Part shown: positions 19,823 to 58,161 of the stretch, piece after piece
Numbering within the stretch: the stretch's first letter is position 1
Layout: every line of letters begins with the position of its first letter
NCBI GenBank assembly: GCA_040905385.1
Contig: JBBDRP010000002.1
Location: 226,292 to 290,291, forward strand
Length of the DNA: 64,000 bases
Direction of reading: 5' to 3'
Source: Minisyncoccota bacterium
Lineage (GTDB): Bacteria; Patescibacteriota; Minisyncoccia; Phycocordibacterales; SW-6-46-9
Notes under the pieces: model-generated
Seen by the model: the letters and a program-made list of their open reading frames with translations, nothing else
What the model was told of the DNA's origin: nothing
The model's database searches: none
Program-made: the position numbers and the translations under genes

Positions 19823-20503
19823 ATGCTTTTACACATTATAAAACGAGGAGGACGCGGCCTGCCGATTGTTGCGGATGACGATGATCGCTGGCGATATCTG
19901 AAATGTCTGTATTATCTAAATGATAAAAATCATCCGATAGGTTGGGAGCGTGATGTTGAAGCGCTTGGTTCTGGACTGCACTTTCAACGCCCGGAATCGT
20001 GGGGTGGTGAGCGCGATCCGTACGTCGATATCCTGTCGTACTGTCTGATGGATAATCATTACCATCTATTCGTTTCCGAGCGCGATGAGGGCATGATGGC
20101 GGCTTTTACGAGGTCGCTAAATAAAAGCATGTCGCAGGCCTATAATGAAAAGCAAGACACAAGCGGAAGTATCTTTCAAGGCCCGCCCAAGAAAAAGTTT
20201 GTTGAGGATGACGCCTACCTGAAATTCCTGTACGTCTATGTCAACGTCAAGAATCCCTTCGAGCGGTATCAGGGCGGCATTCGGAAGGCGATCGAGAATT
20301 TTGATGACGCCTGGGAGTTTGCGCTCGAATACGATTTCTCTAGCTTACCAGATTGTGCGGGTGACCGGGCGTCACCCATCGTGTCGCTGGATATATTTCG
20401 GGATGCATTTTCAAGCTCCGCCGAGTTCAAAGAGTTCGCCCGCGAGCAGATGCATCGGTACGGGCAGTTTCTGGAAGATGTCGATGCGGATGACTTAGAG
20501 TAG
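19823..20503 (+). CDS. tnpA: IS200/IS605-family / REP-associated (RAYT-like) HUH tyrosine transposase (Y1_Tnp)
   Basis: HuH motif MDNHYHLFV (nt ~20055-20080) and catalytic-Tyr region LYVYVNVKNPFE (compare E. coli RayT YIYINPVKHG). At 226 aa it is slightly longer than typical TnpA. Flanked by directly oriented REP-like hairpins. Confidence 0.7.
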   Translation: MLLHIIKRGGRGLPIVADDDDRWRYLKCLYYLNDKNHPIGWERDVEALGSGLHFQRPESWGGERDPYVDILSYCLMDNHYHLFVSERDEGMMAAFTRSLNKSMSQAYNEKQDTSGSIFQGPPKKKFVEDDAYLKFLYVYVNVKNPFERYQGGIRKAIENFDDAWEFALEYDFSSLPDCAGDRASPIVSLDIFRDAFSSSAEFKEFAREQMHRYGQFLEDVDADDLE

Positions 20504-26700: not shown

Positions 26701-29700
26701 CAGCAGTTTAACGGAACTGATACATCAATTGGTGGTGTATTTAATCTGAGTGCTAAGGATGAAATGGTCGTGTCGGTATGGGCGCAACCAACGGCCAGCG
26801 GGCAGTCCAGCCGGTCGGGAATATTTGGATACAGTGAATATAACGTTAGTTCAGCCTATCGATTGGGTGGATTTAGATTTACAAGCAGTGATTTAGGTGG
26901 GCTTGATATCTATCTAGATGATGGAAGTGCCGAGTGGTTTAACTCCACACTGACACTGAATCTCAACCAATGGAATTACATGGTGGGTAGATTTGAATCA
27001 GGGGTTACAAAAGATATTCTTATCAATGACCAGTGGGATGAACGTACTGCACCGACAGGCAGTTTGGCAGCGGGGACCTCAAGCATAGCACTTGGTGAAG
27101 TGCAGGAAGATCCTGTGAACCGCCGATTTCAGGGGCTCATTTCCGAGGCTCGCTACAGCACCGTAAAGAGGAGCCAGGAATTTTATGCCGCTGAGTATAC
27201 GAACCAATCGACCACCACCGATTTCTATACGGTCGATACGACACCAATCCAGATTGACAGCATCGAGGATTTGGATGATGTACGCAACGACCTATCAGCC
27301 AGTTATGAGTTGACGCGCAACCTGGATTTCGACGACTGCGCCTCTTATGACACCTGTGCCAATATGGACACCTACACAACCGGCAGTGGGTGGGACCCAA
27401 TTGGCACGAGTGGCGACCCTTTTACAGGTCAATTTGATTTCAAAGGACACTCAATTACCGGATTAATGATAAATAGATCTAGCACCGACTATCAAGGACT
27501 TTTCGGGGCCTTGGGACTTGATGGTTATATTCATAGCGGTTCAATTATTAATGCAGATGTTATCGGTGAGAAACGTACTGCAGTACTTGTTGGTTTCATG
27601 GATGGAAATGCACTTGTCGAACATATTTCTATTAGGAATAGTACTGTTGGAGGGTCGTACAGTGGTAACAAGGGACTGTTAGTTGGATGGTTAAATAGCA
27701 CTACTTCTCTGATAAGAGATTCTTATGCTCAAGGGCAAGCAATTGTAGGTAATTATAGTGCTGCAGCTGGAGAAATACATCCTGTTGATGCTCAGTTTCC
27801 TTCTGAAAATCTTTACTTTGTCGGAACTCTTGATTATGGTGCCAGTAGCCCTGTTGGAGGTATTGATGCGGCAGATAATGCTTTAAATAGTTTTTATGAT
27901 CAGGATGTTGCAGGAGAAATTTTTGGAGCAGATCCAGGAAATGCAACAACAACGGTCATAATGCAGGACATTGATACGTATATTAATGCTGGCTGGGACA
28001 TCGTCCCGATCGAAGAGCATGACGGGCAGGAGTCGACGGCGACCTGGTTTATTGATGATGGTAATGACTATCCGAAGCTGTGGTTTGAACGCGAGGGGGC
28101 CCAAAGCACAGCGTTTGGCGACGACCCCGACGGCGACTTTGCCGACACCGACTGGAGCCACCGCGAGAAGATCACCATCAACCCCGACAAGGTGCCGACG
28201 GTTACAAGTAGCGTTAATTCGCGCGTCACGCAATCCAGTGATGATGCTGAGGAAAAGCTTTCCGATAATAGTATGCTTATCTCAAGTTCTGATCTTGAAC
28301 TTATCGCTGATGGCACGTCGCCTGGCGGCGATCAAGAGATCGGACTGCGTTTCCAGAACATTACTATTCCCCAGGGTGCCGTGATCACCAACGCCTACAT
28401 CGAGTTCCAGACCGACGAGACCAACAGCACTACCACCAACCTAACCTTCCGCGCGGAGGATAATAACGATACGACGACCTTTACTACCGGTAGTGGTGAC
28501 ATTACCAACCGATCCAAGACAGCCGCCTCGGTTGATTGGAACAACGTGCCGGCCTGGAATACGATTAGCGAAAAGCATCAGACCCCGGATCTGTCGGCGG
28601 TGGTGCAGGAGGTGGTTGATCGCGCCGGCTGGCAGAGTGGTAACGCGATGGCGATGTTTGTCACTGGTGACGGAACCCGGATTGCCGAGGCATATGATGG
28701 CGAGGCGGCCAATGCACCGCTGCTGCATATCGAGTACGAATCTCCAGCGGCAACCTTGACGGATTTTCCAGTTTATGTTGATCTGGCCGATCTGTCGGAT
28801 ACGTTTTTCGTCTACGTAGCAAATGACGGGGCGGACATCCGCGTGACGGCCGGTGACGGGCTGACCGAGCTTCCGCGGGAAGTCGTGTCTGTGGATAGCG
28901 TCGGGAAGACGGGTGAGCTGCACTTCAAGGCCGATGCAGTATACGGGTCGGTCGGGACTGAGTTCTACATCTACTACGGTAATCCGTTTGCTGTGAATTA
29001 TTCAGCCACGGATACGTATGGTGCTCAGAATGTGTGGAATAGTAATTATGTGTTGGTTAGCCATGATGGAGGTGCCACAGATTCAACAAGCAATGGAAAT
29101 AATGGAACTGCTAATGGTGATGCTACTGCAGGGATAGCTACTGGTAAAGTTGGTACTGCTGCAGAATTTGATGGAGTTAGTGATTCATTCCAGATAGCAG
29201 ACGACGCTTCGCTTGATACACCCTCCGCAATCACTATTACAGCTTGGGTAAATGCGAACTCATTCAAGTCTGACTTCAGCGAAATTGTTAGTAAGAAGTT
29301 TGATACTGGTTATGATTTCTTGGTCGACAATGATGCTGGCACAAACGATTTGGAATTCATAAGTTTTGATGCAGATATTCTTCAGTATTCCAACGATAAC
29401 GTGGTTGCCACTAGTACTTGGTCTCATGTGGCTGTTACATATGATAAATCAAATGTAAATTTTTATGCGGATGGCTCGTATGAAGGAGGCGGTGCAGAGA
29501 CGGCAGATATTGGTACGAATAATGAGGATCTGTATATCGGTAGCGATGCAGGTAATAGCTGGGAGTGGAATGGACTTATTGATGAAGTCAGGATACTCTC
29601 TAGTTCTCAATCTGCTGACTGGATTACAGTCGAGTATAATAACCAGTCGTCTCCATCCACCTTCTACTCTGTAGGTACGCAGGAGATTAGCGGCGAAGAC

Positions 29701-30423
29701 ACGATACCGCCGTATCCAGATCCGAGCGAGTTTGCCGTGGCACCAGATGGGGCCAGCACGTCGTCGATCACGATGACGGCTGCCACCTCTACGGACGGCG
29801 AGGGATCAACCCCGGTCGAGTACTACTTCAACTACCAGGCGTGTGCTGCCGATGCCGGCACCGGCTGGAGTCACTCTGGTTGGTTGGTGGAGACGTCGTA
29901 TACCGACGAGAATCTCCAGGTTAACCAGTGCTACAGCTACCGCGTAAAGACCCGGGATAGCCTGGGTAACGAGACGGCGTACTCGGCAACATCCAGTGCC
30001 TACACCGCCGCCGCAATTCCGGACGCGCCGTCACTTTCCAACCCGACGGAGACGACGCTGGACTTGGTGAACAATGAAGGTGCCAACCCAACCGCTAATC
30101 CCGACACCACCTTTGCGGTACAAGTCAGCGATACCTCACCAGGAGACCAGACCTGGACAAACCAGTACGTCAACGCCAGTGGTGAGCCGTCAGCCACCGC
30201 CGTCTGGCTGACAGACAGCCAGCTGAGCGGCTTGACGGTTACCATGCTGGAGCCGAACATCACCTACACCTTCCGCACCAAGGCTCGCAATGAAGACGGT
30301 GACGAGACCGGCTGGTCGGCGACAACCGTGGCCTCGACCTCGTCTGACTACCCAGATGAGACGGACACCTCAACCCGTCTGCGCGGCGGCTCGACCATCC
30401 GCGGTGGCAGCACAGCGCAGTAA
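20728..30423 (+). CDS. Giant (3231 aa) surface protein, paralogous to gene 2. Has an N-terminal TM anchor, at least seven DUF2341-like modules interleaved with LamG_3 domains, two FN3 domains and a distinct insert domain (nt ~28225-28745). C-terminus ends in ...LRGGSTIRGGSTAQ.
   Basis: Same module signatures as 13177-19737. Long near-identical stretches shared with gene 2 (e.g. AAGLAGSGTEADPYL.STPQDLDD.RNDL; TTAEAQDI.TY.NAGWDIVPI..HDG..STA.WYIDDGNDYP.LWFE). Terminal FN3: YYFNYQACAADAGTGWSHSGWL...YSYRVKTRDSLGNET. Confidence 0.85.
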   Translation: MMILEFYKKVKEFIGRHPRMVAVVGVTVAVLVILGSVGTQAAWYSSTGDGPTWQYRQKITIDADQVDAELTDFPVYVDLSDFGSDFFSNVAADGGDIRITTADGTTELAREVVSVDTASSTGELHFKADSLSASSDSEFFIYYGSSGASDYAVTDTYGRNAVWSDYRFVSHDAGYTDSSGALAQGTLFNGITPNDSAGIIGKATLFDKPSQQYVQLGDTIIPPSSDFTFDVWAEQFDFTGTTVSDESLILTQNDSGSTNATFVHGSNARQNHITGLWDINNSRTLEGPDIRGNGWVKLQIRRDGNEFNLFHNNVLQDATTTAITIPDAANAYLGAYENNGPERFFTGLISEVRSAYTARSDDWIATEYTNQNNTTDFYTIGAQDTQPDSNVAFGANSYGDFADTRWSHREKITIDAAQVDADLADFPVYVDLADLSTTFFQNTNVTCGDIRVTAGDGLTELAREVVACDTASSTGELHFKADSLSASSDTEFYIYYGNNSANNYIHDEQFGRDNVWSDGYAGVWHLSEGSGEARDSTANSSNGTNNGATQGVVGQVGGGYDFDGTDDYVKITENFVSSPSELTISAWFKKESGGDVYETVLHKGSADTVGSSDYWLGVSGDDNLTATIGANTGVGWDAGETTTSVNLGQWYHMAATWDGSVVEVYLDGQFNKQYSLSSYGDLNTDTRFGSSADGTNYQFRGTASEIRIYNKSISGDEISATYRNQNSPTTFYTVGVNEASAGLFGDNPSGDFADADWGYREKITIDADQVGATLTDFPVYVDLSNLSATFFDNVTASGGDIRVTAGDGTTQLAREVVSVNTASSTGELHFKADSISSTTDTSFYIYYGNPNADDYAVGDTYGAENVWSNETLAAFHLEENAVNSSDDNFNGTINGSPAWVTGVIYSALDFLGTNGNNVEISSALQSDITNNSYTVKAWINPRLTGSSNQAIIDTGSEGDGQMRFFMNDTDGSFKIQNTASFTGTGVRSSAGILTADIWNQVVAVVNGTSAILYHNGQEITSGTIDAYTGNGNNIAFGDKPLSSGSSMNALNGSLDEVYIYNSLLSTDWIAAEYTNQSTTTDFYTVGSLEEPSTVFGDDTDGDFADTDWTYREKITINADQVEETLTDFPVYVDLSDFGSQFFNNVRSDGGDIRITASDGTTELAREVVSVDTASSTGEIHFKADEIDAEADTDFYIYYGNTAAVDYVVTDTYGRNAVWSNGYAGVWHTGEDSATQTFDSTGNNNTGNFQDNLPTTQSGKIGDTQDFDGTSDYIDAGTDSSLDITTEITVGVWVNPDNTGGDYTGIVNKSRADTAGFWMGYSANGDIVRWETNDAGGSWHEVDMPLIDAEVGEWNHFVGVYDGSELIGYKNGSQSGTPDSFTGEFETTTNSLKFGDFEVADRWFDGMLDEIRISSAARSADWIATEYNNQNAPSSFYTISGSPSEAPVLLTPEDTATEVSRAPTLDWQPVQSATEYQVQVSPTSTFSSITVDANATDSEIALGTPYPSLDASTTYHWRVRTVDGQSFGAWSTDFSFTTAAGLAGSGTEADPYLISTPQDLDDIRNDLDAYYRLTQDIDLTFDTRDPNGDFYNAGDGWQEIDNFDGEFDMGGYSIIGARIFNGFFDNIGSNGLIHSGKFADCEVHGGYDQGVINETGGAGLIKEVVVDNCSVASGNTTSRRIGGFSGRGISSQDVISRNLVLGGEGDKGANTGRVFDTKVYTRNLIHNVSWEGVSGQTENPLFGWIQSGGNPTVNDVFFDDDTLDYAGTRTDQGTGLTTTEAQDITTYENAGWDIVPIAQHDGQRSTAIWYIDDGNDYPRLWFEYEGEGWKDGWSHREKVTIKSSAVDATLEDFPVYVDLADFGATFFNNVRTDGGDIRVTKADGTTELAREVVSVDTASSTGELHFKADRLASTTDTTFYVYYGNPDASEYATDYAYGRNVVWSDYENVYHLDEQGDGTTGEHIDSAGNHDLTAGYFSAGIPNRVDGNLGYAQQFNGTDTSIGGVFNLSAKDEMVVSVWAQPTASGQSSRSGIFGYSEYNVSSAYRLGGFRFTSSDLGGLDIYLDDGSAEWFNSTLTLNLNQWNYMVGRFESGVTKDILINDQWDERTAPTGSLAAGTSSIALGEVQEDPVNRRFQGLISEARYSTVKRSQEFYAAEYTNQSTTTDFYTVDTTPIQIDSIEDLDDVRNDLSASYELTRNLDFDDCASYDTCANMDTYTTGSGWDPIGTSGDPFTGQFDFKGHSITGLMINRSSTDYQGLFGALGLDGYIHSGSIINADVIGEKRTAVLVGFMDGNALVEHISIRNSTVGGSYSGNKGLLVGWLNSTTSLIRDSYAQGQAIVGNYSAAAGEIHPVDAQFPSENLYFVGTLDYGASSPVGGIDAADNALNSFYDQDVAGEIFGADPGNATTTVIMQDIDTYINAGWDIVPIEEHDGQESTATWFIDDGNDYPKLWFEREGAQSTAFGDDPDGDFADTDWSHREKITINPDKVPTVTSSVNSRVTQSSDDAEEKLSDNSMLISSSDLELIADGTSPGGDQEIGLRFQNITIPQGAVITNAYIEFQTDETNSTTTNLTFRAEDNNDTTTFTTGSGDITNRSKTAASVDWNNVPAWNTISEKHQTPDLSAVVQEVVDRAGWQSGNAMAMFVTGDGTRIAEAYDGEAANAPLLHIEYESPAATLTDFPVYVDLADLSDTFFVYVANDGADIRVTAGDGLTELPREVVSVDSVGKTGELHFKADAVYGSVGTEFYIYYGNPFAVNYSATDTYGAQNVWNSNYVLVSHDGGATDSTSNGNNGTANGDATAGIATGKVGTAAEFDGVSDSFQIADDASLDTPSAITITAWVNANSFKSDFSEIVSKKFDTGYDFLVDNDAGTNDLEFISFDADILQYSNDNVVATSTWSHVAVTYDKSNVNFYADGSYEGGGAETADIGTNNEDLYIGSDAGNSWEWNGLIDEVRILSSSQSADWITVEYNNQSSPSTFYSVGTQEISGEDTIPPYPDPSEFAVAPDGASTSSITMTAATSTDGEGSTPVEYYFNYQACAADAGTGWSHSGWLVETSYTDENLQVNQCYSYRVKTRDSLGNETAYSATSSAYTAAAIPDAPSLSNPTETTLDLVNNEGANPTANPDTTFAVQVSDTSPGDQTWTNQYVNASGEPSATAVWLTDSQLSGLTVTMLEPNITYTFRTKARNEDGDETGWSATTVASTSSDYPDETDTSTRLRGGSTIRGGSTAQ

Positions 30424-30481: not shown

Positions 30482-30886
30482 ATGAGCAAAGAACCCAAAA
30501 AGGAGAACAAAATTACATCATTCACTGATCTGACAACGTGGCAAAAAGGCCATGAACTAGTAGTGGAGATTTATGAGACAACCGAGGAGTTTCCTAAGCG
30601 AGAGGTGTATGCGCTTACCGACCAAATTCATCGATCGGCTGTATCAGTTACTTCCAACATTGCTGAAGGGTTTGGTCGTTTTAGCTACGCCGATAGACTA
30701 CATTTTTACCGCATGGCTCGTGGATCACTGACAGAATTACAGAATCAACTCTTGATTGCTCGTGATGTTGGGTATCTCGGCACGGACAAATTTAAAGCCT
30801 TGGCAAGTAAAACCACTACGGTAGAGAAATTACTACAAGGCTTGATTCGAGCCACGAGTGATAGGAAAGATTCACATACCTCTTAG
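30482..30886 (+). CDS. Four-helix-bundle protein (23S rRNA intervening-sequence protein family, TIGR02436-like)
   Basis: ...TDLTTWQKGHELVVEIYETTEEFPKREVYALTDQIHRSAVSVTSNIAEGFGRFSYADRLHFYRMARGSLTELQNQLLIARDVGYL... matches the family pattern (W..A..L...IY.....FP..E...L..Q..R...SI..NIAEG). Confidence 0.75.
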   Translation: MSKEPKKENKITSFTDLTTWQKGHELVVEIYETTEEFPKREVYALTDQIHRSAVSVTSNIAEGFGRFSYADRLHFYRMARGSLTELQNQLLIARDVGYLGTDKFKALASKTTTVEKLLQGLIRATSDRKDSHTS

Positions 30887-37831: not shown

Positions 37832-39589
37832 CTATACTCCGATAACCACCGGAATCACAAGCGGTTCCTTGCCCGTCTCCTGTCGGAGGTAGCTGCGGGT
37901 TCGTTCGGTTAGCTTGCTCTTTACGTAGTCAAAGTTAACTGACTTACGGCCTTTAGCAGCCTCCTCGACAACATTGCGAACGAGGTCACGTGTGTCGGAA
38001 AGAAGTTTCTTGCTTTCTCGGAGATAGACAAATCCGCGGCTGATAAGATCCGGAGACTTACGCAGCTTCCCGTTCTTTGGGTTAATGGCCACGATTATTA
38101 CGAAGATACCTTCAGTCTGTAGTATTTCGCGATCACGGATGACAACATCCTGAATGTTACCAATACTGAGTCCATCAACGGTAAGTGTCTCTCCAGCGGC
38201 CTTTTGCGGCAGCTTTTCGAACTTTGTACCGTTCTCTTTAATTTCCACAATGGATCCATTCTCGGGAACAATTACGTGATTATCTGGCATACCAAGATCC
38301 TTGGTAGCTAGCTTCTTGTGCAGCTCGAGCATATAACGGTTTCCGTGCTGTGGCATGAAGAATTTTGGCTTCAGCATTTCGTGCAGCCAACGAATTTCAC
38401 CACGGTTTCCGTGTCCGGAAGCATGAACGTGTAGGTCAGTGGTTTTTGAGGTAATGATATCGGCACCCGAGGCCGCAATGTTGTCCTTTAGTGATGCCAC
38501 TGCTTTTTCGTTTCCAGGTACAACCGACGCAGATAGTACGACAGTGTCCTGCCCGTTAAAGGCTAGATGATGGTGGGTCTGGTTTGCCATACGGTTGAGG
38601 GCGGCAAATTCCTCTCCCTGTGATCCGGTAGCAAGAATCAAAATCTCGTTTGGTTGGTAGTTATCGACATCCTTGCCTTGAATAAATATGCCATCTGGTG
38701 CCTTGATGAGCCCGGCTTCCTGCGCAACAGCAACGTTCGTACGCATGGATCGACCTTCAAGTACGACTTTGCGGTTGTACTGACCAGCCAAATCAATAAT
38801 TCGTGCCATACGTTCGATTAGCGAGGCGAAGGAGGCAATGATCAGTCGTCCGTGCGTCTGCTGGAAGATTTTTTCTAGGTCGCGGTGTACCTTCCATTCC
38901 GGTACTCCGAATCCAGGATTCTCAATGTTAGTGGAGTCCATCATCAGCATCAGAACATCCTTCTCGGCGACTTTTTTGTATACTTGCTGCTCTTTCTCGG
39001 AAACAGTTCCATCCACGTGGTCCAGCTCGAAGTCGGCCTGGTTGATAATCTGTCCGTATGGTGTGTCGATGATGACACCCATAGAGTCAGGAATTGTGTG
39101 TGCCATCTCATAGAATCGTACTGGTGTGCTACCGAGCGTGATTTCATCCTCACCCGTAACGACATGAATATCAAGTGGTTCGTTGTCAGGAAATTCTTCC
39201 TGACGCTTTAAAATCATCAGTTTAGAAAAACTGCGACAGTAAATTGGAGGATTGCCGATACGATCCATAATATAGGGAATACCACCGATGTGGTCGAGGT
39301 GACCGTGAGTGATGACGAGACCGCGAATTTTATCTTTGTGCTCCTCGAGGTAACGAGTATTTGGAAGCACATAATCAATTCCAGGTAGATCTTCACTTTC
39401 AAAGCTGTATCCGCAGTCGATGATAATGATGTCATTGGCTGTCTCTATCATGGCCATGTTGCGTCCGACCTCCTCGACTCCGGACAGCGGAATGATGCGA
39501 ATGTCTCCTTCGGCGACTTCAGGAATTGGATCGCCTTTGCGTTCATCTAATTCTCTGTGTTGTAGATTGGTAGTTGTGTATCGTCCCAT
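37832..39589 (-). CDS. rnj: Ribonuclease J (metallo-beta-lactamase / beta-CASP RNase)
   Basis: ...IIPLSGVEEVGRNMAMIETANDIIIIDCG...LVITHGHLDHIGGIPY... HxHxDH motif and beta-CASP layout, 585 aa. Confidence 0.9.
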   Translation of the reverse strand: MGRYTTTNLQHRELDERKGDPIPEVAEGDIRIIPLSGVEEVGRNMAMIETANDIIIIDCGYSFESEDLPGIDYVLPNTRYLEEHKDKIRGLVITHGHLDHIGGIPYIMDRIGNPPIYCRSFSKLMILKRQEEFPDNEPLDIHVVTGEDEITLGSTPVRFYEMAHTIPDSMGVIIDTPYGQIINQADFELDHVDGTVSEKEQQVYKKVAEKDVLMLMMDSTNIENPGFGVPEWKVHRDLEKIFQQTHGRLIIASFASLIERMARIIDLAGQYNRKVVLEGRSMRTNVAVAQEAGLIKAPDGIFIQGKDVDNYQPNEILILATGSQGEEFAALNRMANQTHHHLAFNGQDTVVLSASVVPGNEKAVASLKDNIAASGADIITSKTTDLHVHASGHGNRGEIRWLHEMLKPKFFMPQHGNRYMLELHKKLATKDLGMPDNHVIVPENGSIVEIKENGTKFEKLPQKAAGETLTVDGLSIGNIQDVVIRDREILQTEGIFVIIVAINPKNGKLRKSPDLISRGFVYLRESKKLLSDTRDLVRNVVEEAAKGRKSVNFDYVKSKLTERTRSYLRQETGKEPLVIPVVIGV

Positions 39590-48986: not shown

Positions 48987-49886
48987 ATGGCAACACTATA
49001 TGGTGACCAATCGGCGAATAGAAAGAAAACCTGGGCCCTGATGGCCGGTTTCTTGATCGTGATTATTCTGCTTGGTTGGGCGGCTAGCTGGTACTTTAAC
49101 TCGCAGATTATTCTCTTTGTGGCGGTGGGGTTTTCACTGGTCATGAACGGCATCAGCTTCTGGTTTTCACACAAGATTGCGCTCAAGAGTGCCGGTGCGG
49201 AGGAGGCTGACCCGAAGCAGTATCAGGAGCTGCACAATCTTGTCGAGAACCTCTGCATCACCGCTGGTATTCAGAAGCCAGGTGTATACATCATCGAGGA
49301 TCCGTCTCCAAATGCCTTTGCTACCGGGCGTAATGAAGAGACAGCCGCCGTGGCGGTTACAACGGGGCTGCTACAGCTACTGGATCGGTCCGAGCTAGAG
49401 GGAGTGATTGCCCACGAGATTGCCCACATCACCAATCGAGATATCCTGCTGTCCTCGATGGTCGTGGTATTGGTTGGGTTTGTGACGCTGCTTTCTGACT
49501 TTTTTCTGCGCTGGTCGCTTTTCGGTGGCGGTGGTAGTGACAATCGGGCAGGACTTCTCTTCGCTATTGTTGGAATCGCACTGGCAATTCTGTCGCCGAT
49601 TATTGCTATGATTATTCAGCTGGCCATCTCTCGCAAGCGTGAGTTTCTCGCCGATGCTAGTGGGGCACTTTTGACTCGGTATCCGGAGGGGTTAGCAAAT
49701 GCACTACGAAAGATTGATTCATCGGTAAGCGATCGACCACTCAGCCGGGCTAACCACGCGACGGCACATCTGTACTTTGAGAATCCGTACGGGGGAGACG
49801 ACTCAAAAAAAGGATTTCTAACCAAGGCGTTTATGACCCACCCACCGACCAGTGAGCGGATTAATGCTCTGATGAGTCAACAGTAG
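48987..49886 (+). CDS. htpX: Zn-metalloprotease HtpX (peptidase M48)
   Basis: HEIAHI (HExxH) motif, 4 TM helices, typical HtpX length. Confidence 0.9.
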   Translation: MATLYGDQSANRKKTWALMAGFLIVIILLGWAASWYFNSQIILFVAVGFSLVMNGISFWFSHKIALKSAGAEEADPKQYQELHNLVENLCITAGIQKPGVYIIEDPSPNAFATGRNEETAAVAVTTGLLQLLDRSELEGVIAHEIAHITNRDILLSSMVVVLVGFVTLLSDFFLRWSLFGGGGSDNRAGLLFAIVGIALAILSPIIAMIIQLAISRKREFLADASGALLTRYPEGLANALRKIDSSVSDRPLSRANHATAHLYFENPYGGDDSKKGFLTKAFMTHPPTSERINALMSQQ

Positions 49887-50210
49887 TGCCGAACATTTGC
49901 CAGAAGAGAAGTAGCGGCTGCCAGTTTTAGTACATGATTATGCAAAAGTTTATTATTCGAGCACGTAAAGGCCTTATTTTTAGCTACAATAAATAGCACA
50001 CAAAACTGTGGATAAGTCTACTTGACTCTGTATACCGTTTTGCTAATATATGTGTACGGGCAAAGACAGAGACATTAAAAATCAAAGTTGAGTCGGTACT
50101 TACGACAACCGCATCACTACGATGCATACACCATACACACCCACTCAACACACACATTTTTAACTCACTCTCAATCTTTCCCACACAACACATATTCATT
50201 TCATTTATAA

Positions 50211-50234
50211 TTCTGCATTTGCAGAATTTTTTTA
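50211..50234 (+). terminator. AT-rich hairpin + T8 (TTCTGCATTTGCAGAATTTTTTTA) ending a G-depleted CA-rich tract
   Basis: Read directly. The stem is weak (6 bp). Confidence 0.4.
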
Positions 50235-50349
50235 TTACATACAGCTATTGACCGCAAGAGCTAATTAGAATAATATGTGGCTGCTGAGACATAATCCCCT
50301 TTGTTTCAGCAGGTTACCAATACAGGTAATTCCATCCCACACTCCTACG

Positions 50350-50380
50350 GGCCCGAGCCAGCTAAGCTCGGGCCTTTTTT
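50350..50380 (+). terminator. Strong rho-independent terminator
   Basis: GGCCCGAGC-CAGCTAA-GCTCGGGCC-TTTTTT, with no ORF upstream. Confidence 0.75.
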
Positions 50381-50471
50381 ATTTAATAAAATGAAAACTT
50401 TAGGTATACTGACAGCATACGTAGCATTCATAGAGGGGTGACAGAGTGGATGAAAAAAATATTATTACAGC

Positions 50472-50557
50472 GGAGGGATGACAGAGCGGTCGATTGTGCA
50501 CGCTTGGAAAGCGTGTGTGCGTTCTTCGCACCGCGGGTTCGAATCCCGCTCCCTCCG
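50472..50557 (+). tRNA. tRNA-Ser (anticodon GGA), class II with long variable arm
   Basis: Acceptor GGAGGGA/TCCCTCC + G, 3-bp D-stem, anticodon loop TTGGAAA, variable hairpin GTGCG-TTCT-CGCAC, T-arm GCGGG-TTCGAAT-CCCGC. Confidence 0.9.
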
Positions 50558-50577
50558 CTGTGGTTGTATTTTTTCGC
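50541..50577 (+). repeat. Direct repeat copy 1: last 17 nt of tRNA-Ser + 20 nt trailer (GAATCCCGCTCCCTCCGCTGTGGTTGTATTTTTTCGC)
   Basis: Identical sequence (with one extra T) at 50691-50728. Confidence 0.85.
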
Positions 50578-50690
50578 GCTCTCTGCAGAATTTGAACGAG
50601 TTGGATTTTTAAGGAGAAAAGAAAGCGCATTTCTGCGCTTTCGTGAGGCGTGGTGACGGAAATTTTGAGTCAGCAAAATTATCTGTGACC

Positions 50691-50728
50691 GAATCCCGCT
50701 CCCTCCGCTGTGGTTGTATTTTTTTCGC
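50691..50728 (+). repeat. Direct repeat copy 2 of the tRNA-Ser 3' end + trailer (att-like scar)
   Basis: See 50541-50577. 113 bp separate the copies. Confidence 0.85.
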
Positions 50729-50799
50729 CCCCCTCAGTATTGAATAACCAACAAGTACTTCGTGTGTTTGTTGGTGGTTAAATAGGTATAATTATAAAT

Positions 50800-51123
50800 A
50801 TGACAAATACAAAGTTAGTAAAATTTAAGTTTAAATTGGGTACTAAACAAATTTGGCTAGATTGGTCAAAGGAGTTAAAGCGAAGGGAAGATGAAGTAAT
50901 TGAGACACTTAAAAATGAAGGTGTTGTTTCTGAATCTTGTTATATGTCAGATGATGGCGAGCATGTTTATTATTTTATGGAAGCAGAAGATTTTGAGAAA
51001 GTAAAAAGGGCTGTTAGTGAAAATCCTCATCCTATTGACAGTGATCATAAAAAGGCCAGAGAAAGTAGTCTAGATTTTGTTTCAAAATTAGAATGTCTTT
51101 TTCATTTTAGTAACAGAAATTAA
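50800..51123 (+). CDS. Hypothetical protein (107 aa), markedly more AT-rich than neighbours; extended -10 TGGTTAAATAGGTATAAT 8 bp upstream
   Basis: ORF only. Compositional contrast visible by eye. Confidence 0.5.
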   Translation: MTNTKLVKFKFKLGTKQIWLDWSKELKRREDEVIETLKNEGVVSESCYMSDDGEHVYYFMEAEDFEKVKRAVSENPHPIDSDHKKARESSLDFVSKLECLFHFSNRN

Positions 51124-51862: not shown

Positions 51863-53197
51863 ATGTCAAAAACTACATCCCAAGATTCTGATACAGCAGG
51901 ATTTTCAGTCACGGAGGCTGAAAAAATTGTCGGTAATGTCCTAAAACGCGACGGTAGCAAGGTTGCGTTTGATATTGATAAAATTGTCGCTGCTATTATG
52001 GGCGCTATGAGCGAAGCTGAAGAGGGAACCGAAGACGATGCCCGACAAGTAGCTGAAAATGTCCTGATGGAGCTGGCTCGTATAAAGGATCGCTACGCGA
52101 CGTTTCTGCCGTCGGTAGAAGGGATTCAGGACCATGTCGAGAAGGAGCTCATTAAGGCCAACTATGCCGCTACGGCCAAGGCCTATATTTTGTATCGGCA
52201 TCGACAGGCTGAGCTACGTGAGCGTAACCTGTTTCGTCCACGTCAGAATCTCAAGCCGTACGAGTATCCCGAGCTGGCCGAGTACGTCGATGCTATCCGG
52301 CACTCCTACTGGATTCATACCGAGTTTAACTACACCTCGGATATCAATGACTACAAAGCCAACATTACGGATGTGGAGCAGAGCGCCATCAAGAACTCCA
52401 TGCTGGCGATTGCGCAGATCGAGGTGGCGGTAAAGACTTTCTGGGGTGATTTGTATAAGAAGATGCCGAAGCCAGAGATCGGGGCAGTCGGTTATACGTT
52501 TGCTGAAAGTGAGGTTCGTCACATGCAGGCGTACTCACATCTGCTGGAAATTCTTGGCCTGAATGGTGAGTTTAAACACCTTACCGAGGTGCCAGTAATC
52601 AAGGAAAGAATTGATTACCTGAATCGGGCGGCAGCACCATCGCATAATGACAACGATCGCGAGTATACGCGCTCCATATTTCTGTTCTCCTTGTTTGTAG
52701 AGCATGTATCACTGTTCAGTCAGTTCCTGATCATTATGGCCTTTCAGAAGCACAAGAACCTCTTTAAGGGCATCTCTAACGTCGTCGAGGCTACCTCAAA
52801 GGAAGAGCAGATTCACGGTCTGTTTGGAATTGACCTCGTAAATCAGATTAAAAAAGAAGAGCCACGTTGGTTTGATGACGAGTACGAGCAATCGGTGCGC
52901 AACATGTGCCGGGAGGCGATGGCGACCGAGGAAAAGCTGGTCGACTGGATCTTCGAGGCTGGCGAGCTTGATTTTCTTCCTAAGCAGGTGGTGCATGAGT
53001 TCCTCAAGCACCGTATGAACAACTCCTTGAAATCAATTGGCTATGCGCCAGAGTTTGATACTGATAAAGATCTTGTGGCCGAAACAGCCTGGTTTAACGA
53101 AGAGGTGATTGCCACCAAGCATGTCGACTTCTTCCAGAAGCGCTCCATCAATTACTCCAAAAAGACGCAGAGTGTCACCTCTGATGACCTCTTCTAA
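51863..53197 (+). CDS. nrdB: Ribonucleotide reductase small subunit (NrdB, ferritin-like di-metal R2) with an N-terminal ATP-cone
   Basis: N-term VLKRDGSKVAFDIDKIVAAI (ATP-cone). R2 core ...EVRHMQAYSHLLE..., ...SLFSQFLIIMAFQ... Precedent: ATP-cone-containing NrdB proteins are described in the literature. Confidence 0.8.
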   Translation: MSKTTSQDSDTAGFSVTEAEKIVGNVLKRDGSKVAFDIDKIVAAIMGAMSEAEEGTEDDARQVAENVLMELARIKDRYATFLPSVEGIQDHVEKELIKANYAATAKAYILYRHRQAELRERNLFRPRQNLKPYEYPELAEYVDAIRHSYWIHTEFNYTSDINDYKANITDVEQSAIKNSMLAIAQIEVAVKTFWGDLYKKMPKPEIGAVGYTFAESEVRHMQAYSHLLEILGLNGEFKHLTEVPVIKERIDYLNRAAAPSHNDNDREYTRSIFLFSLFVEHVSLFSQFLIIMAFQKHKNLFKGISNVVEATSKEEQIHGLFGIDLVNQIKKEEPRWFDDEYEQSVRNMCREAMATEEKLVDWIFEAGELDFLPKQVVHEFLKHRMNNSLKSIGYAPEFDTDKDLVAETAWFNEEVIATKHVDFFQKRSINYSKKTQSVTSDDLF

Positions 53198-53244
53198 CGA
53201 TGACCGGGGAGTGCTTATTTACCACCTAACACACAGTCACTGAT

Positions 53245-54921
53245 ATGTCATACGAATGGTTAAACGAACAGTCACAAACATTTCTCGAGCGTGGGTACCT
53301 GGTTGGCGACCAGACGCCGAAGGGGAGAATTCGCGAGATTGCTGAAACCGCCGAAGAATACCTCCAGAAGGACGGCTTCGCCGATAAGTTCGAGGACTAC
53401 ATGTCCAAGGGCTACATCTCATTGGCTAGTCCAGTTTGGAGTAACTTTGGGCTGGATCGGGGGTTACCAATCAGCTGCTTTGGATCTGACATTGCCGATA
53501 ATATGAGCAGTATTTTATATACACAGGCGGAGGTTGGCATTATGAGTAAGTACGGTGGGGGAACCTCAGCTCACTTTGGTAATCTGCGCGAGCGTGGTGC
53601 CTCGATTTCTAACAATGGTCAGTCCAACGGTCCGGTCCACTTTATGCAGCTTTTTGACAAGATGGTTGATGTAGTTAGCCAGGGAAATGTGCGCCGCGGA
53701 AATATGGCGACGTATCTTCCGGTTGAACATCCAGACATCATGGAGTTTCTAGATATTGGTACTGAAGGAAACGAGATTCAGGGGCTGACTCACGCCGTAA
53801 CAGTTGGGGATGATTGGATGCAGGAAATGGTGGACGGCGATGACGAGAAGCGCGCCATCTGGGCCAAGGTTATCCAGCGTCGTGGAGAGATCGGCTATCC
53901 GTACATTATGTTTTCTGATAATGCCAACAACAACCGACCACAGGTTTACAAGGATAAGGACATGCGTATCAAGGCCACGAACCTGTGTTCGGAAATCATG
54001 CTGCCATCAGACGAGGATCTTTCCTTTGTCTGCTGCCTGTCTTCAGTGAATCTCCTCCACTACAACGAATGGAAGGACACCGACCTGATTGAGACCGTGA
54101 CGTACTTTCTGGATGCCGTTATGGAGGACTTCATCGTCTCGCTGGAACGGCTGCGTGACTCTGACGAAGAGGAGGATCAGCAGTCATTTGAGTTCATGAA
54201 ACGAGCGCATAAGTTTGCCAAGGAGCACCGTGCTGTTGGGGTCGGTGTGTTGGGTTGGCACTCATTCCTGCAGTCCCGTAGCATTCCGATGGAAAGCCAG
54301 GAGGCTGATCAGCTGAACGTAGAAATATTTAAAAATCTTAAAGAAAAAACGTATGCTGCCTCCGAGGAAATGGCGCAGGTGTACGGTGAGCCGGAGGTCC
54401 TGAAAGGCTACGGTCGGCGTAATACGACGACGATGGCGATTGCACCAACTACCTCATCATCCTTTATTTTGGGGCAGGTTTCGCAAAGCATCGAGCCGCT
54501 GATGAGTAACTGTTACGTAAAGGATCTGGCCAAGATAAAGACCACCATTCGCAATCCATACCTGAAAGAAATTCTCAAGGAGAAGGGGAAGGATACGGTG
54601 GAAACCTGGGACAGCATTCGCGACAATGATGGGTCCGTCCAGCACCTGGATTATCTTTCCGAGCATGAGAAGGAGGTGTTTCGCACCTACGCAGAGATGG
54701 ATCAGGCCAAGATTATTGAGCAGGCAGCGGTACGTCAGCAGTACATTGACCAGGGACAGTCTCTGAACGTACTGGTTGGTCCGGAGGCTTCGGCTAAGGA
54801 TATCAATGAGCTGTATCTGAAGGCGTGGCGAAACGGGGTCAAGGCACTGTACTATCAGCACAGCATGAACGCTGCCCAGCAGCTGAGTCGGAAGAAGATT
54901 TGTGCGGCTTGTGAAGCGTAA
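53245..54921 (+). CDS. nrdA: Class I ribonucleotide reductase large subunit (NrdA/NrdE-like), short form without ATP-cone
   Basis: Catalytic NLCSEIMLP motif and C-terminal redox pair KICAACEA. 558 aa. Confidence 0.75.
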   Translation: MSYEWLNEQSQTFLERGYLVGDQTPKGRIREIAETAEEYLQKDGFADKFEDYMSKGYISLASPVWSNFGLDRGLPISCFGSDIADNMSSILYTQAEVGIMSKYGGGTSAHFGNLRERGASISNNGQSNGPVHFMQLFDKMVDVVSQGNVRRGNMATYLPVEHPDIMEFLDIGTEGNEIQGLTHAVTVGDDWMQEMVDGDDEKRAIWAKVIQRRGEIGYPYIMFSDNANNNRPQVYKDKDMRIKATNLCSEIMLPSDEDLSFVCCLSSVNLLHYNEWKDTDLIETVTYFLDAVMEDFIVSLERLRDSDEEEDQQSFEFMKRAHKFAKEHRAVGVGVLGWHSFLQSRSIPMESQEADQLNVEIFKNLKEKTYAASEEMAQVYGEPEVLKGYGRRNTTTMAIAPTTSSSFILGQVSQSIEPLMSNCYVKDLAKIKTTIRNPYLKEILKEKGKDTVETWDSIRDNDGSVQHLDYLSEHEKEVFRTYAEMDQAKIIEQAAVRQQYIDQGQSLNVLVGPEASAKDINELYLKAWRNGVKALYYQHSMNAAQQLSRKKICAACEA

Positions 54922-54949
54922 CGTAAATACCAATCTTTTGCGTGCGCAC

Positions 54950-54975
54950 AAATAAATCCCTGCGAGGATTTTTAT
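54950..54975 (+). terminator. Weak hairpin + T-run after nrdA (AAATCCCTGCGAGGATTTTTA)
   Basis: 5-6 bp stem. Confidence 0.35.
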
Positions 54976-55062
54976 CCGCTCAGGCGCTCAGTTTGATAGA
55001 AATCGGACATCATACTGAGCGCCTTGCGCAAGGCTCCGAAAAAGAGGTATTTACTCAGTTCA

Positions 55063-55093
55063 TCGATTTTATTTTCTTTGAAAATAAAATCGG
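55063..55093. repeat. 13-bp-stem hairpin TCGATTTTATTTTC-TTT-GAAAATAAAATCGG immediately preceding motif-family copy A
   Basis: Read directly. Confidence 0.7.
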
Positions 55094-55396
55094 AAAGGAA
55101 GTCCGAACAAAACAAGGTGCTCGCATTGAAGTTTCTTGCCTAATCTATAGTTATGTTACTCGGCTTCGTCTCTTTAAGTAAAGCTAAGAAGTATCCCTGT
55201 GCTGAAGCTAGAACAGTACATAGATAAGAGGTAATTTTTGCCCAAAAAACGACCCAGAACGGCTATTTATTTTGGTTGAAAAAAGTCGATATTGAATTAT
55301 TCCATCTTATTTTTAGAGATGTTTTTTATAGCCAGCTACTGCGCACTAGTTAAACGATATCTTTTACAAATATGCAATTAAGGTTTTTGTTTAGCA

Positions 55397-55426
55397 TCTA
55401 TCAGTAAAAATAATTTTACTGATAGA
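55397..55426. promoter_or_regulatory. Perfect inverted repeat TCTATCAGTAAAA-ATAA-TTTTACTGATAGA ~65 bp upstream of the class-II-like RNR gene; candidate operator
   Basis: 13-bp arms read directly. Not a canonical NrdR box. Confidence 0.4.
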
Positions 55427-55491
55427 AACATAATATAATACATAAACAATTAAATAATGTTTCGGTTTTAAAATCTAATTATTTATTCTTT

Positions 55492-57819
55492 ATGTCTCAA
55501 TCAGCATCTCAATTAGGGGAGGGTAAAAGAAATGTATCAGTGGATGAAGCTGAAAAAATTATTGGTAAAGTCATGAAGCGTGATGGTGCTATTGTTGATT
55601 TTAATATTGATAATATTGCGAACGCTATTTTCTCTGCAATGAAAGAGACGGAAGAGGGATCTAAATCAGCAGCAGAAAAAGTTGCCAAGCGTGTTTTAAC
55701 AGAGCTCGTTCGTATCAAGGAGCGATACGCTACCTTCGTCCCTTCTGTTGAAGGAATTCAGGACCATGTAGAGAAGGCACTTATGCGAGCTGACTTTCCG
55801 CAGACGGCCAAGGCTTATATTTTATATCGAGAGAAGCGATCGCAAGAGAGAGAGCAAAAAACCTATGTAGTTCCCGAGGAGGTTAAGCAGGCGGTGGCTG
55901 AGTCAAGTCAGTATTTCGGCAGTTCTTATCAGGAGTTTATTTTTTACCGCACCTACTCTCGTTGGCGAGATGATCTCGGTCGGCGGGAAACTTGGACGGA
56001 GGCCATCGATCGGTATATGGATTTCATGCGTGAGAATGTTGGCAACAAAATAACTGAATCTGAGTATAAGGAAGTTCGTCAGGCTATGCTGGATATGGAA
56101 ATTATGCCTTCGATGCGACTACTTTGGTCGTCCGGTAAGGCGGCTCGGGAGTCAAATGTTTGGGCGTACAACTGTTCTTATTTAGCACCAACTCGGTTGC
56201 GAGATTTTCCCGAAATGATGTATATCCTTATGTGTGGAGCTGGTTTAGGCTACTCGGTTGAGACTGAGAATATTGGGCAGTTACCGCAGATAATTAAGCA
56301 AACAGGAGAGCAGCTAGAGACACATGTGGTGGCTGATAATAAAGAGGGTTGGGCTGATGCTTTTCTTCATGGTCTTGAGACGTGGTATGCCGGTAAGGAT
56401 ATTGAGTTTGATTACTCGAAGGTGCGTCCGAAAGGGGCTCGCTTGAAGACGGCTGGTGGTACAGCCAGCGGTCCGCAGCCGCTGAAGAACTTAATGGCTT
56501 TTTCTCGTGAGAAAATTCTTGCTCGACAAGGTAAGCGACTATCAACCATTGATGTGCATGACATAATTTGTAAAATCGGAGAGATTGTAGTATCTGGTGG
56601 AGTGCGACGATCGGCCTTGATTTCGTTGTCAGATCTTGGTGACGAGGATATGCGTGATGCTAAAAAAGGGCGCTTCTTTGACACGGAACCGCAGCGAGCC
56701 ATGGCCAACAACTCAGCAGTTTATGAAGAAAAACCATCACCAGGAACCTTTCTGTCTGAGTGGACAGCGTTGGTGAAAAGTAATTCTGGAGAACGCGGTA
56801 TCTTTAATCGCGGTGGCCTGGAGGAGCAGCTACCCGAGCGCCGTGCAAAAATATTTCGCGAGAAAGAGGAGAATGGAGATATGAGTTTCCGGCCAGGAGT
56901 TAATCCGTGTGGTGAAATTATTCTGCAGAGCCGACAGTTTTGCAATCTTACCAATGTGGTAATACGGAAAGGGGATACCGTGAAAGAGCTGAAGCGGCGT
57001 ATGCGGCTGGCGAGTCTGCTTGGTACGTACCAAGCAACCTTGACAAAGTTCAAGTATCTGTCTGAGGAATGGAAGCAGAACTGTGACCAAGAGCGCTTAC
57101 TTGGCGTTGCCTTTACTGGCTATTATGACAACGAGGCGGTACGCGATGATAAGGTGATGGAGGAGCTTAAAAACGAAGCCGTAGCCGCCAATGATAAGTA
57201 TGCGGAACGTCTTGGTATTAGTAAATCAACCTGTGTGACTACGGTGAAGCCAAGTGGAAACTCATCCCAGCTAACTGACACAGCTTCGGGAATGCATCCA
57301 CGCTACGCTCCGTACTACATTAGACGCGTACGAATCAGCGATACTGATCCTTTGTTTAAATTAATGAAGGAAGAAGGGGTGTCGTACCAGCCTGAGGTTG
57401 GTCAGACTGAGGATACAGCCAATACGTTTGTGCTAGAGTTTCCGCTGAAAGCACCGGAAGGAGCCATCACAACTAAGGATGTTAGTGCCTTAGATCTACT
57501 TAAGGAGTGGCGCCGCGTCAAGGAGCATTACACAGAACATAATCCTTCAATCACGATTTCGGTTGGTGATGATGAGTGGATTGAAGTGGCTAACTTTCTG
57601 TATAAAAATTGGGAGACGGTTGGTGGACTGTCATTTCTGCCACGAACTGACCACGTTTACGACTTAGCTCCGTATGAGCCAATCTCGAAGGAGGAGTACG
57701 AAGAGATGGTTTCCCAGGTGCCGGATGTTGACTTTGCTAAGCTGTCCGCTATCGAGGCGACAGATAATACCGAGGGATCAAAGGAGTTTGCCTGCGTGTC
57801 TGGAGAGTGTCCAATTTAG
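55492..57819 (+). CDS. Ribonucleotide reductase, class II (adenosylcobalamin-dependent, NrdJ-like) with N-terminal ATP-cone
   Basis: N-term VMKRDGAIVDFNIDNIANAIFSA (ATP-cone). NPCGEIILQSRQFCNLTNV active-site motif typical of class II. 775 aa. Confidence 0.65.
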   Translation: MSQSASQLGEGKRNVSVDEAEKIIGKVMKRDGAIVDFNIDNIANAIFSAMKETEEGSKSAAEKVAKRVLTELVRIKERYATFVPSVEGIQDHVEKALMRADFPQTAKAYILYREKRSQEREQKTYVVPEEVKQAVAESSQYFGSSYQEFIFYRTYSRWRDDLGRRETWTEAIDRYMDFMRENVGNKITESEYKEVRQAMLDMEIMPSMRLLWSSGKAARESNVWAYNCSYLAPTRLRDFPEMMYILMCGAGLGYSVETENIGQLPQIIKQTGEQLETHVVADNKEGWADAFLHGLETWYAGKDIEFDYSKVRPKGARLKTAGGTASGPQPLKNLMAFSREKILARQGKRLSTIDVHDIICKIGEIVVSGGVRRSALISLSDLGDEDMRDAKKGRFFDTEPQRAMANNSAVYEEKPSPGTFLSEWTALVKSNSGERGIFNRGGLEEQLPERRAKIFREKEENGDMSFRPGVNPCGEIILQSRQFCNLTNVVIRKGDTVKELKRRMRLASLLGTYQATLTKFKYLSEEWKQNCDQERLLGVAFTGYYDNEAVRDDKVMEELKNEAVAANDKYAERLGISKSTCVTTVKPSGNSSQLTDTASGMHPRYAPYYIRRVRISDTDPLFKLMKEEGVSYQPEVGQTEDTANTFVLEFPLKAPEGAITTKDVSALDLLKEWRRVKEHYTEHNPSITISVGDDEWIEVANFLYKNWETVGGLSFLPRTDHVYDLAPYEPISKEEYEEMVSQVPDVDFAKLSAIEATDNTEGSKEFACVSGECPI

Positions 57820-57834
57820 AATAAAAAGGTTGGT

Positions 57835-58161
57835 TTGATTTATACACAATCAAATGTTATAATTATCATTGGTGATTGCGTAGTCGCCCCCCACCACTTT
57901 GTGCATTACGTTTACGTTTTAAAAAGTCAGAAGGATAAAAAGCTCTACATTGGAGTGACGGAAGATCTTAAACGACGTTTTGCTGAGCATCAAAATGGAG
58001 AAAATCGCTCAACGAAACATCGTCGTCCGTTTACACTTGTTTACTACGAAGCATTTAGAGCCAAAGTAGATGCTCATGAAAGAGAGCGGAAGCTAAAACA
58101 GTTTAAGAATTCGTATAAACATCTAAAGGATCGTATTGGTAAATGTATTGATAGTGCATAA
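57835..58161 (+). CDS. GIY-YIG nuclease superfamily protein (YhbQ/UPF0213-like); alternative GTG start near 57900
   Basis: VHYVYVLKSQKDKKLYIGVTEDLKRRFAEHQNG...RRPFTLVYYEAF GIY-YIG core. Confidence 0.75.
   Translation: MIYTQSNVIIIIGDCVVAPHHFVHYVYVLKSQKDKKLYIGVTEDLKRRFAEHQNGENRSTKHRRPFTLVYYEAFRAKVDAHERERKLKQFKNSYKHLKDRIGKCIDSA

Follow-up and report, generated by a model that had tools for sequence, protein, structure and literature searches.

What is encoded in a 585-bp bacterial spacer that seems to hold no gene? We addressed this question for the interval between htpX and tRNA-Ser(GGA) in a 64,000-nt stretch of DNA (the window) from the ~0.8-Mb, uncultivated salt-lake genome of a halophilic member of the Paceibacterota (Patescibacteria, also candidate phyla radiation (CPR)). 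The initial annotation of this interval, made from the letters alone, had described a gene-free region of ~580 bp with two terminators and a ~90-nt G-less tract, and had suggested that it gives rise to one or two short transcripts. Our measurements agree with this description: the G-free run is exactly 90 nt long, and both terminators are present, at 50209-50235 and 50349-50381, where 50211-50234 and a strong 50350-50380 had been given. The spacer probably carries two small non-coding RNA (sRNA) genes, each transcribed on its own, that form a conserved cassette on the plus strand; we call them sRNA-1 and sRNA-2. The proposed short transcripts stay predictions, now backed by a promoter–RNA–terminator block that is conserved in two diverged relatives with compensatory changes in its stems. 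The principal features of the locus are listed below; L-numbers denote homologous loci.

48987-49886: htpX (Peptidase_M48)
49887..50004, plus strand: htpX-proximal spacer without a terminator or significant structure, kept in L082 and L083, absent in L162
50007..50015, minus strand: 9-mer TTATCCACA (TGTGGATAA on the plus strand), identical to the DnaA-box consensus
50022..50049, plus strand: promoter 1 from a consensus scan, with -35 TTGACT, a 16-nt spacer and an extended -10 TGcTAATAT
~50056..50235, plus strand: predicted sRNA-1, ~180 nt, its start inferred from the promoter and its end from the terminator
50209..50235, plus strand: terminator 1, a stem-loop at 50209-50228 (8-bp stem) and a T-run to 50235
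50248..50276, plus strand: promoter 2, with -35 TTGACC, a 17-nt spacer and -10 TAATAT
~50283..50381, plus strand: predicted sRNA-2, ~100 nt
50349-50375 with a T-run to 50381, plus strand: terminator 2, 10 pairs, 8 of them G-C
50472-50558, plus strand: tRNA-Ser(GGA)

Architecture and conservation of the cassette

Homologous loci were fetched around HtpX relatives in genome and metagenome collections and by exact-protein look-ups. The window HtpX is 100% identical to the NCBI entry 'M48 family metallopeptidase' of Candidatus Paceibacterota bacterium, and the nearest relatives are metagenome-assembled genomes and contigs from hypersaline sites. Among these loci we distinguished three versions of the cassette: that of the window, which is also that of L161; that of L082, shared by L081, L165, L168 and L169; and that of L162. 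HtpX identity to the window protein is 88-90% in the L082 group and 88% in L162. Each version lies directly 3' of htpX, beginning 8 nt past the htpX stop codon in L162, and all keep the same order of parts: 9-mer box, promoter 1, sRNA-1, terminator 1, promoter 2, sRNA-2 and terminator 2.

Each terminator has a sigma-70-like promoter upstream at a fitting distance, and promoter 1 with its extended -10 is close to the consensus. The -35 element of promoter 1 is invariant, and its -10 region is conserved in L082 and L162. The 9-mer TTATCCACA, 6 nt upstream of this -35, is likewise invariant in all three versions, and a 35-nt block spanning the -35 and TGTGGATAA just upstream of it is 100% identical between the window and L082, whose spacers are ~76% identical overall. 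Promoter 2 is conserved in L082; its L162 counterpart reads TTGACT, 17 nt, TATAAG. The stem of terminator 1 has a different sequence in all three versions with its pairing kept, four pairs having changed on both sides. Upstream of the cassette, the htpX-proximal spacer is ~76% identical to L082 and ~74% identical to L083, and its fold has z = +1.23. Neither a terminator-like site nor a stable structure was found between the htpX stop and promoter 1, in a scan of 49884-50060. Since no terminator separates htpX from sRNA-1, htpX read-through probably ends at terminator 1, which would make the sRNA-1 sequence also the htpX 3' untranslated region (UTR).

The match of the conserved 9-mer to the DnaA-box consensus raises the possibility that DnaA acts at promoter 1. 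Boxes of this kind number 15 in the window, with 15.1 expected; because this count equals chance, DnaA binding is no more than a lead. A replication origin or DnaA-box cluster was rejected on the same count and on a monotonic cumulative GC skew, and we keep the 9-mer only as a conserved promoter-proximal site.

The cassette is narrowly distributed. The covariance model for sRNA-1 (R1) scored 177-195 bits on the three versions only, and that for sRNA-2 (R2) scored 95-106 bits on them. Across the window and 79 loci (524 kb), the two models detected neither additional members nor another copy in the window, and R2 matched L164 only weakly (E = 0.14). An exact-pattern scan of viral contigs for the invariant apical hairpin of sRNA-1 gave 0 matches, and a distant blastn search with the cassette found no match in phage and plasmid collections. 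Only tRNAs passed the gathering thresholds of Rfam 15 in the whole window; neither 6S (RF00013), RsaE, 6C, LhrC nor CsrB/RsmZ did. At E <= 10 over 49800-50800, no Rfam family emerged for either unit; the best match of sRNA-1 was a chance Epstein–Barr virus (EBV) one, and the best sub-threshold match of sRNA-2 was suhB (26.8 bits against a gathering threshold of 41; E = 0.003 on 1 kb).

Several relatives carry different sequence at this position. In L083 the cassette is replaced, from 3763 onward (about window 50004), by an unrelated AT-rich, apparently coding segment, and the break falls exactly at the left edge of the box and promoter block. In L163 (2904-3162; HtpX 88%), htpX is followed only by an inverted tRNA-Ser, DUF192 and ribonucleotide reductase; compared with this locus, the sRNA cassette and the DUF6176 gene of the window form a variable segment between conserved neighbours. 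Relatives with 79-87% HtpX identity have other promoter-to-terminator units directly after htpX. A unit of ~130 nt after htpX is common to L002, L084, L085 and L086, and tandemly repeated units lie just after htpX in L087 and L170. At L001 (4985-5305; HtpX 77%) we observed a promoter-like site, a folding region (z = -6.2) and a G-poor, C/U/A-rich segment of ~160 nt with 6 G in its poorest 80 nt; because R1 has no match there, we treat this region as a putative analogue, not a homologue, of sRNA-1. The spacer downstream of htpX seems to be a preferred site for small RNA cassettes that differ between lineages.

The tRNA-Ser end of the spacer also bears marks of rearrangement. A 17-nt copy of the tRNA-Ser(GGA) 5' end (88% identical) lies at 50433-50449, 40 nt upstream of the gene, and an exact 35-nt direct repeat (50540-50574 and 50690-50724) comprises the last 19 nt of the tRNA and 16 nt downstream, recurring 150 nt on. 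The tRNA-Ser gene is on the plus strand in the window and on the opposite strand relative to htpX in L163, L084, L086, L087, L082 and L003. These scars look like traces of past integration, excision or inversion.

Fold and composition of the two candidate RNAs

The predicted parts of the two RNAs, including the G-free tract, are the following.

50058..50097, plus strand: purine-rich 5' arm of the long hairpin of sRNA-1, with all G of the helix and all 5 C bulged
50076..50140, plus strand: near-invariant apical domain of sRNA-1, including the hairpin GCAUC-ACUAC-GAUGC (50111-50125) and flanking loops
50125..50214, plus strand: G-free CA-rich tract, 90 nt, running from the 3' side of the apical loop through the 3' arm and the tail into the start of terminator 1
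50139..50182, plus strand: G-free 3' arm of the long hairpin
50183..50208, plus strand: single-stranded G-free tail, 26 nt long in the window (20 in L082, 14 in L162), variable in sequence
50282-50311, plus strand: hairpin 1 of sRNA-2, with loop AUAAUCCCCU
50312-50331, plus strand: hairpin 2 of sRNA-2
50332-50348, plus strand: C-rich unpaired linker of sRNA-2, 17 nt, CCAUCCCACACUCCUAC

The minimum free energy (MFE) of sRNA-1 is -41 kcal/mol (z = -9.58; L082 homologue, z = -8.37), and its predicted fold is dominated by a long bulged hairpin. In this model the G-less tract is the 3' half of sRNA-1, because the 3' arm, tail and terminator 1 follow a purine-rich 5' arm. The 30 long-range pairs of the window RNA comprise 11 G-C, 12 A-U, 7 U-A and 0 C-G; across the three versions, pairs with C on the 5' arm number 0, 0 and 1 among 30, 26 and 28, and every other C of the 5' arm is bulged. 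The apex consists of a 13+13-nt internal loop and a 5-bp hairpin. The loop AYACACCAYACAC is invariant, and the 17-mer CGCATCACTACGATGCA is exact in all 7 cassette-bearing loci. In the sRNA-1 alignment 92.4% of cells are paired, compared with 36-51% when partners are slid. Changes on both sides affect five pairs, four in terminator 1 and one in the long hairpin, where an A-U pair becomes C-G in L162 and brings in the only G of the L162 tract. Structural support from this comparison is strong for the terminators and modest for the long hairpin of sRNA-1.

The tract had been taken for unstructured RNA. This view fails for the 37 of its 90 bases that pair with the upstream purine-rich arm in the MFE fold (z = -9.6) and stands for the remaining ~60%, made up of the apical loop side and the CA-rich tail; mean unpaired probability is 0.59 across the tract and ~0.9-1.0 in the tail. 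The accompanying suggestion of a protein sponge or a seed region narrows to that unpaired portion. A CsrA sponge was discarded, because GGA cannot occur in a segment with 0 G (50125-50214).

The base composition of 50125-50214 is A31 C31 T28 G0. A wider span, 50095-50215, had been called almost devoid of G; it holds 7 G, and the strict absence applies to 50125-50214. The second-longest G-free run in the 64 kb measures 39 nt, and the longest G- or C-free run in shuffled sequences (n = 200) averaged 41 nt with a maximum of 62. At the G frequency of 0.20 found in the spacer outside the tract, ~3e-4 runs of 90 nt would be expected in the window on both strands. The run is not due to chance. A C-free run at 1562-1616, inspected as a minus-strand analogue of the tract, proved to be merely AT-rich spacer.

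Absence of the tract from every relative had been named as a refutation, and the G-free state is in fact retained in both other versions, over 81 nt in L082 and over 53 nt plus one G in L162. Of the 33 variable alignment columns within 50125-50214, 3 contain a G, and 2 of these lie in the relatives' terminator stems; within 50125-50208 the sole G across versions is the compensatory one in L162. If one-third of substitutions gave G, a rough estimate puts the probability of such avoidance at ~1e-4 to 1e-6. Because G has been avoided through ~30 substitutions, its exclusion is, judging from the column counts, under selection and not a by-product of pairing or of CA-repeat slippage.

The second RNA has the firmer fold. 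sRNA-2 has an MFE of -40 kcal/mol (z = -6.29), and its 23 pairs are standard in 89 of 89 informative cells (four rows), with changes on both sides at 9 of them. None of 500 shuffles was as good, and slid partners were 25-43% paired. By this comparative evidence sRNA-2 is a solid structured RNA. A CCCAC-type motif recurs in its unpaired parts and at the base of sRNA-1, and is found as well in sRNA-2-like units of the more distant L164 (1884-2050), L166 (2096-2290) and L167 (2033-2230).

Alternative explanations and a possible mode of action

Two open reading frames (ORFs) overlap sRNA-1.

49984-50199, minus strand: ORF of 71 aa
50088-50210, plus strand: ORF of 40 aa

These mechanical ORFs, one of which has been called as a gene, qualify the statement that the region has no plausible ORF, which holds in the sense that neither is conserved. 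The called gene is a 69-aa version of the minus-strand ORF on an identical Logan contig (L161 1683-1892, equal to window 49984-50193). That the locus encodes a small protein, either this 69-71-aa product or a His/Thr-rich plus-strand peptide (MHTP...), could be argued from the ORFs and the gene call, from an ATG and first 4-6 codons (MHTPH/YT) common to the three versions, and from four third-position substitutions in HTHSTHTFLT between the window and L082. However, the minus-strand ORF matched itself alone among 5.8 billion proteins and is not open in L082, so the public gene call antisense to sRNA-1 is most likely a false prediction. On the plus strand, the ATG sits inside the invariant stem of the apical hairpin, the peptides are 13, 40 and 28 aa long in the three versions, and the frame is shifted by 1-, 2- and 3-nt indels; in L082 the ORF stays open across the terminator, and the frame that is conserved lacks a start codon in the window. 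A coding function is very unlikely and already largely refuted.

Could the tract serve a protein instead of pairing with RNA? A protein-titrating or protein-loading RNA would use it as a single-strand RNA-binding platform, with a Rho rut site as the best match, serving Rho-dependent handling of htpX read-through or acting as a decoy. By definition, rut sites are single-stranded RNA stretches of 60-80 nt that are rich in C, poor in G and contain YC dimers (PMC6144790). Like them, and like C>G bubbles, the tract is rich in C, lacks G for ~80-90 nt and contains many YC dimers: 14 in the 90 nt of the window, which hold 31 C and 0 G, 18 in the 81 nt of L082, and 13-18 across the versions. The absence of an htpX terminator upstream of terminator 1 fits this idea, and the invariant apical loops point to a specific ligand. 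Yet a hairpin forming directly on transcription would sequester 40% of the tract, and Rho would be superfluous given an efficient intrinsic terminator no more than 25 nt further on. Unlike rut sites, the tract is also partly base-paired and lies inside a separately promoted small transcript. The literature that we searched did not address Rho in Patescibacteria. We consider this explanation unlikely. We give somewhat less credit still to a purely cis-acting htpX 3' UTR, in which the only task of the hairpin and terminator 1 is to stabilise or end the htpX mRNA, without any separate sRNA-1. Such a role would suit the stretch free of terminators from the htpX stop to terminator 1, the start of the L162 element 8 nt past the stop, and the constant position of the cassette directly downstream of htpX. 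But conservation in the spacer is highest at the -35 element and its upstream box (35 nt at 100%, against 90% for HtpX), which is hard to explain without a promoter, and a 3' stabiliser needs no 125-nt asymmetric hairpin with an invariant apex.

Two further explanations fare worse. sRNA-1 shares with 6S RNA, an open-promoter mimic that binds RNA polymerase, a length of ~180 nt, a strong predicted promoter and a long hairpin of irregular shape whose 13+13-nt internal loop sits close to the apex. It matches no Rfam 6S model even at E <= 10, however; the helix past the bubble, only 5 bp, is not long enough to imitate the upstream DNA of a promoter, the RNA ends in a tail and terminator that do not pair with its 5' end, and the RNA is confined to three lineages whereas 6S is broadly conserved. 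A divergent 6S-like RNA is therefore highly improbable. We attach almost no weight to the idea that the spacer is non-functional low-complexity DNA, such as a decayed CA microsatellite in a recombination-prone region. CA-repeat-like stretches with 2-nt indels between versions would suggest as much, as would the different inserts among relatives and the tRNA-fragment scars in this hot-spot spacer. Slippage, however, fails to explain the purine-rich complementary arm, the compensatory changes, the invariant apex, the conserved promoter and terminator, or the avoidance of G over ~30 substitutions.

The interpretation of the spacer as two sRNA genes also has points that weigh against it. Promoters and transcript ends are predictions from sequence. 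Promoter-like matches in the region are not enriched (4, against 2.7 +/- 1.4 in shuffles), and the case for two RNAs therefore rests on conservation. Only three distinct versions are available, and covariation in the long hairpin amounts to one pair; in L082 several of its basal pairs become A-C in the alignment, and the RNA refolds in a shifted register. Conservation in sRNA-1 peaks in the apical domain and not in the G-free tail, a pattern that protein binding would explain no less well than base pairing. L082 does not keep the unpaired C-rich motifs of sRNA-2. Lastly, RNAduplex comparison of four unpaired segments with 29 gene starts in the window gave targets no better than those of shuffled segments.

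Taking both sides together, we favour two sRNA genes, whose products are most likely lineage-specific riboregulators. Both would be stable and act in trans. Each begins with a helix within 1-3 nt of its predicted start and ends with a terminator hairpin, a usual design of stable sRNAs where decay depends on the 5' end. The 5'-terminal hairpins would shield both RNAs from RNase J, which is encoded in the window (37832-39589). Because neither G-C nor G-U pairs can arise within RNA that lacks G, the G-free unpaired segments would remain accessible, either to pair with G/U-rich target sites or to bind a single-strand RNA-binding protein. Exclusion of G from the 3' arm would force a single fold and leave the arm unstructured if the hairpin were opened or cleaved, and the invariant apex may engage a specific partner, possibly a protein.

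Other modes of action were set aside. An anti-Shine–Dalgarno seed is unlikely because genes in the window lack a Shine–Dalgarno (SD) motif: in front of 29 long ORFs, 25 nt of AT-rich sequence show no GGAGG-like motif, and many Parcubacteria are without an anti-SD (PMC9297842). A TATAAT box precedes the ATG by 10-15 nt in several genes that are possibly leaderless, among them DUF6176 at 50800 (upstream region 50775-50799) and the ORFs at 32337 and 58596. A leader-peptide attenuator or riboswitch that would control downstream genes through an antiterminator was ruled out by the conserved promoter past terminator 1 and by the G-free 84 nt before this terminator, which cannot pair with the C of its 5' half, AAUUCUGC. 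A bolder proposal is that sRNA-1 belongs to a new class of regulatory RNA in ultra-small, non-Shine–Dalgarno bacteria. Its one-sided hairpin would release the G-free arm and tail on heat-shock melting, RNase III cleavage or strand displacement, as a long, unstructured CA-rich decoy for a general binder of single-stranded RNA, be it Rho, S1/30S or a protein of the cold-shock type. Transcription would take place together with, or beside, that of the heat-shock protease gene htpX, from a DnaA-gated promoter. We regard this as a long shot; if true, it would couple global RNA handling to the state of replication or stress.

Known RNA families and the surrounding genes

Among described regulators, the closest parallels are the C-rich-seed sRNAs of Hfq-independent Gram-positives, RsaE/RoxS, mycobacterial 6C, Listeria LhrC and IsrR, which use unpaired G-free C/A-rich segments as seeds (PMC6486639, PMC4132741, PMC5419742, PMC9410917). 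The two candidates resemble them in length (100-180 nt), in having their own predicted promoter and an intrinsic terminator, in the RNase J decay context, and in C-rich, G-poor unpaired parts such as the UCCCC of the sRNA-2 loop and the CCCACACUCCU of the sRNA-2 linker; their tandem arrangement is like that of the LhrC copies. Neither matches any of the Rfam models of these families in sequence or structure, and whereas the seeds of those families target Shine–Dalgarno sequences, the genes of the window show no such motif. Nor are the 90-nt G-free tract and the strictly one-sided hairpin of sRNA-1 features of those families. Like mmgR/suhB (RF00519), sRNA-2 combines a hairpin, a C-rich unpaired motif and a terminator; that family, however, is alphaproteobacterial, the match is sub-threshold, and the resemblance lies mostly in the terminator and the C-rich linker. 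sRNAs embedded in 3' UTRs with an internal promoter, of the DapZ or MicL type, offer another parallel. The sRNA-1 promoter follows the stop of the upstream gene (8 nt after it in L162) and shares its terminator with that gene, but lies in the spacer and not, as in that type, in the coding region. By their design both RNAs are, in our reading, ordinary bacterial sRNA genes that fall in no described family by sequence or structure; the strictly G-free, one-sided hairpin of sRNA-1 makes it an unusual variant.

Regulatory RNAs of Patescibacteria (CPR) are essentially uncharted, and this locus offers a well-delimited, structurally supported pair of candidates. The literature that we searched describes no sRNAs of Patescibacteria, and a preprint on the TM7x transcriptome speaks of 'no currently validated small RNAs' (10.1101/2022.03.25.485537). 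If expressed, the two RNAs would count as some of the earliest sRNA families described from this radiation and would give a handle on post-transcriptional control in organisms without Shine–Dalgarno-led initiation. sRNA-1 adds a rare compositional rule, the exclusion of G over 80-90 nt with all G-C pairs oriented one way. The practical value is limited by a very narrow distribution (three versions, all from hypersaline metagenomes) and a lack of cultures.

The genes around the cassette run in the order groES-groEL, two small genes, a PsbP_2-domain protein, LemA, HtpX, the spacer, tRNA-Ser(GGA), DUF6176, DUF192 and the ribonucleotide reductase genes; the relatives' counterparts of the PsbP_2-domain protein carry DUF2207. 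At 51863-57819, the small and large chains of a Class I-type ribonucleotide reductase precede a second reductase, which is of the B12 type and has an ATP-cone. After the reductases comes a small GIY-YIG protein (57835-58161), possibly a homing-endonuclease-like gene. Elsewhere in the window, very large ORFs lie in a row at 2138-13117 (3659 aa), 13177-19737 (2186 aa) and 20728-30423 (3231 aa), and a second exact DnaA-box 9-mer at 2114-2122 stands just upstream of the first of them. An ORF at 19823-20503 has a weak, sub-threshold match to an IS200-like transposase, and 30482-30886 encodes a homologue of the 23S rRNA intervening-sequence protein.

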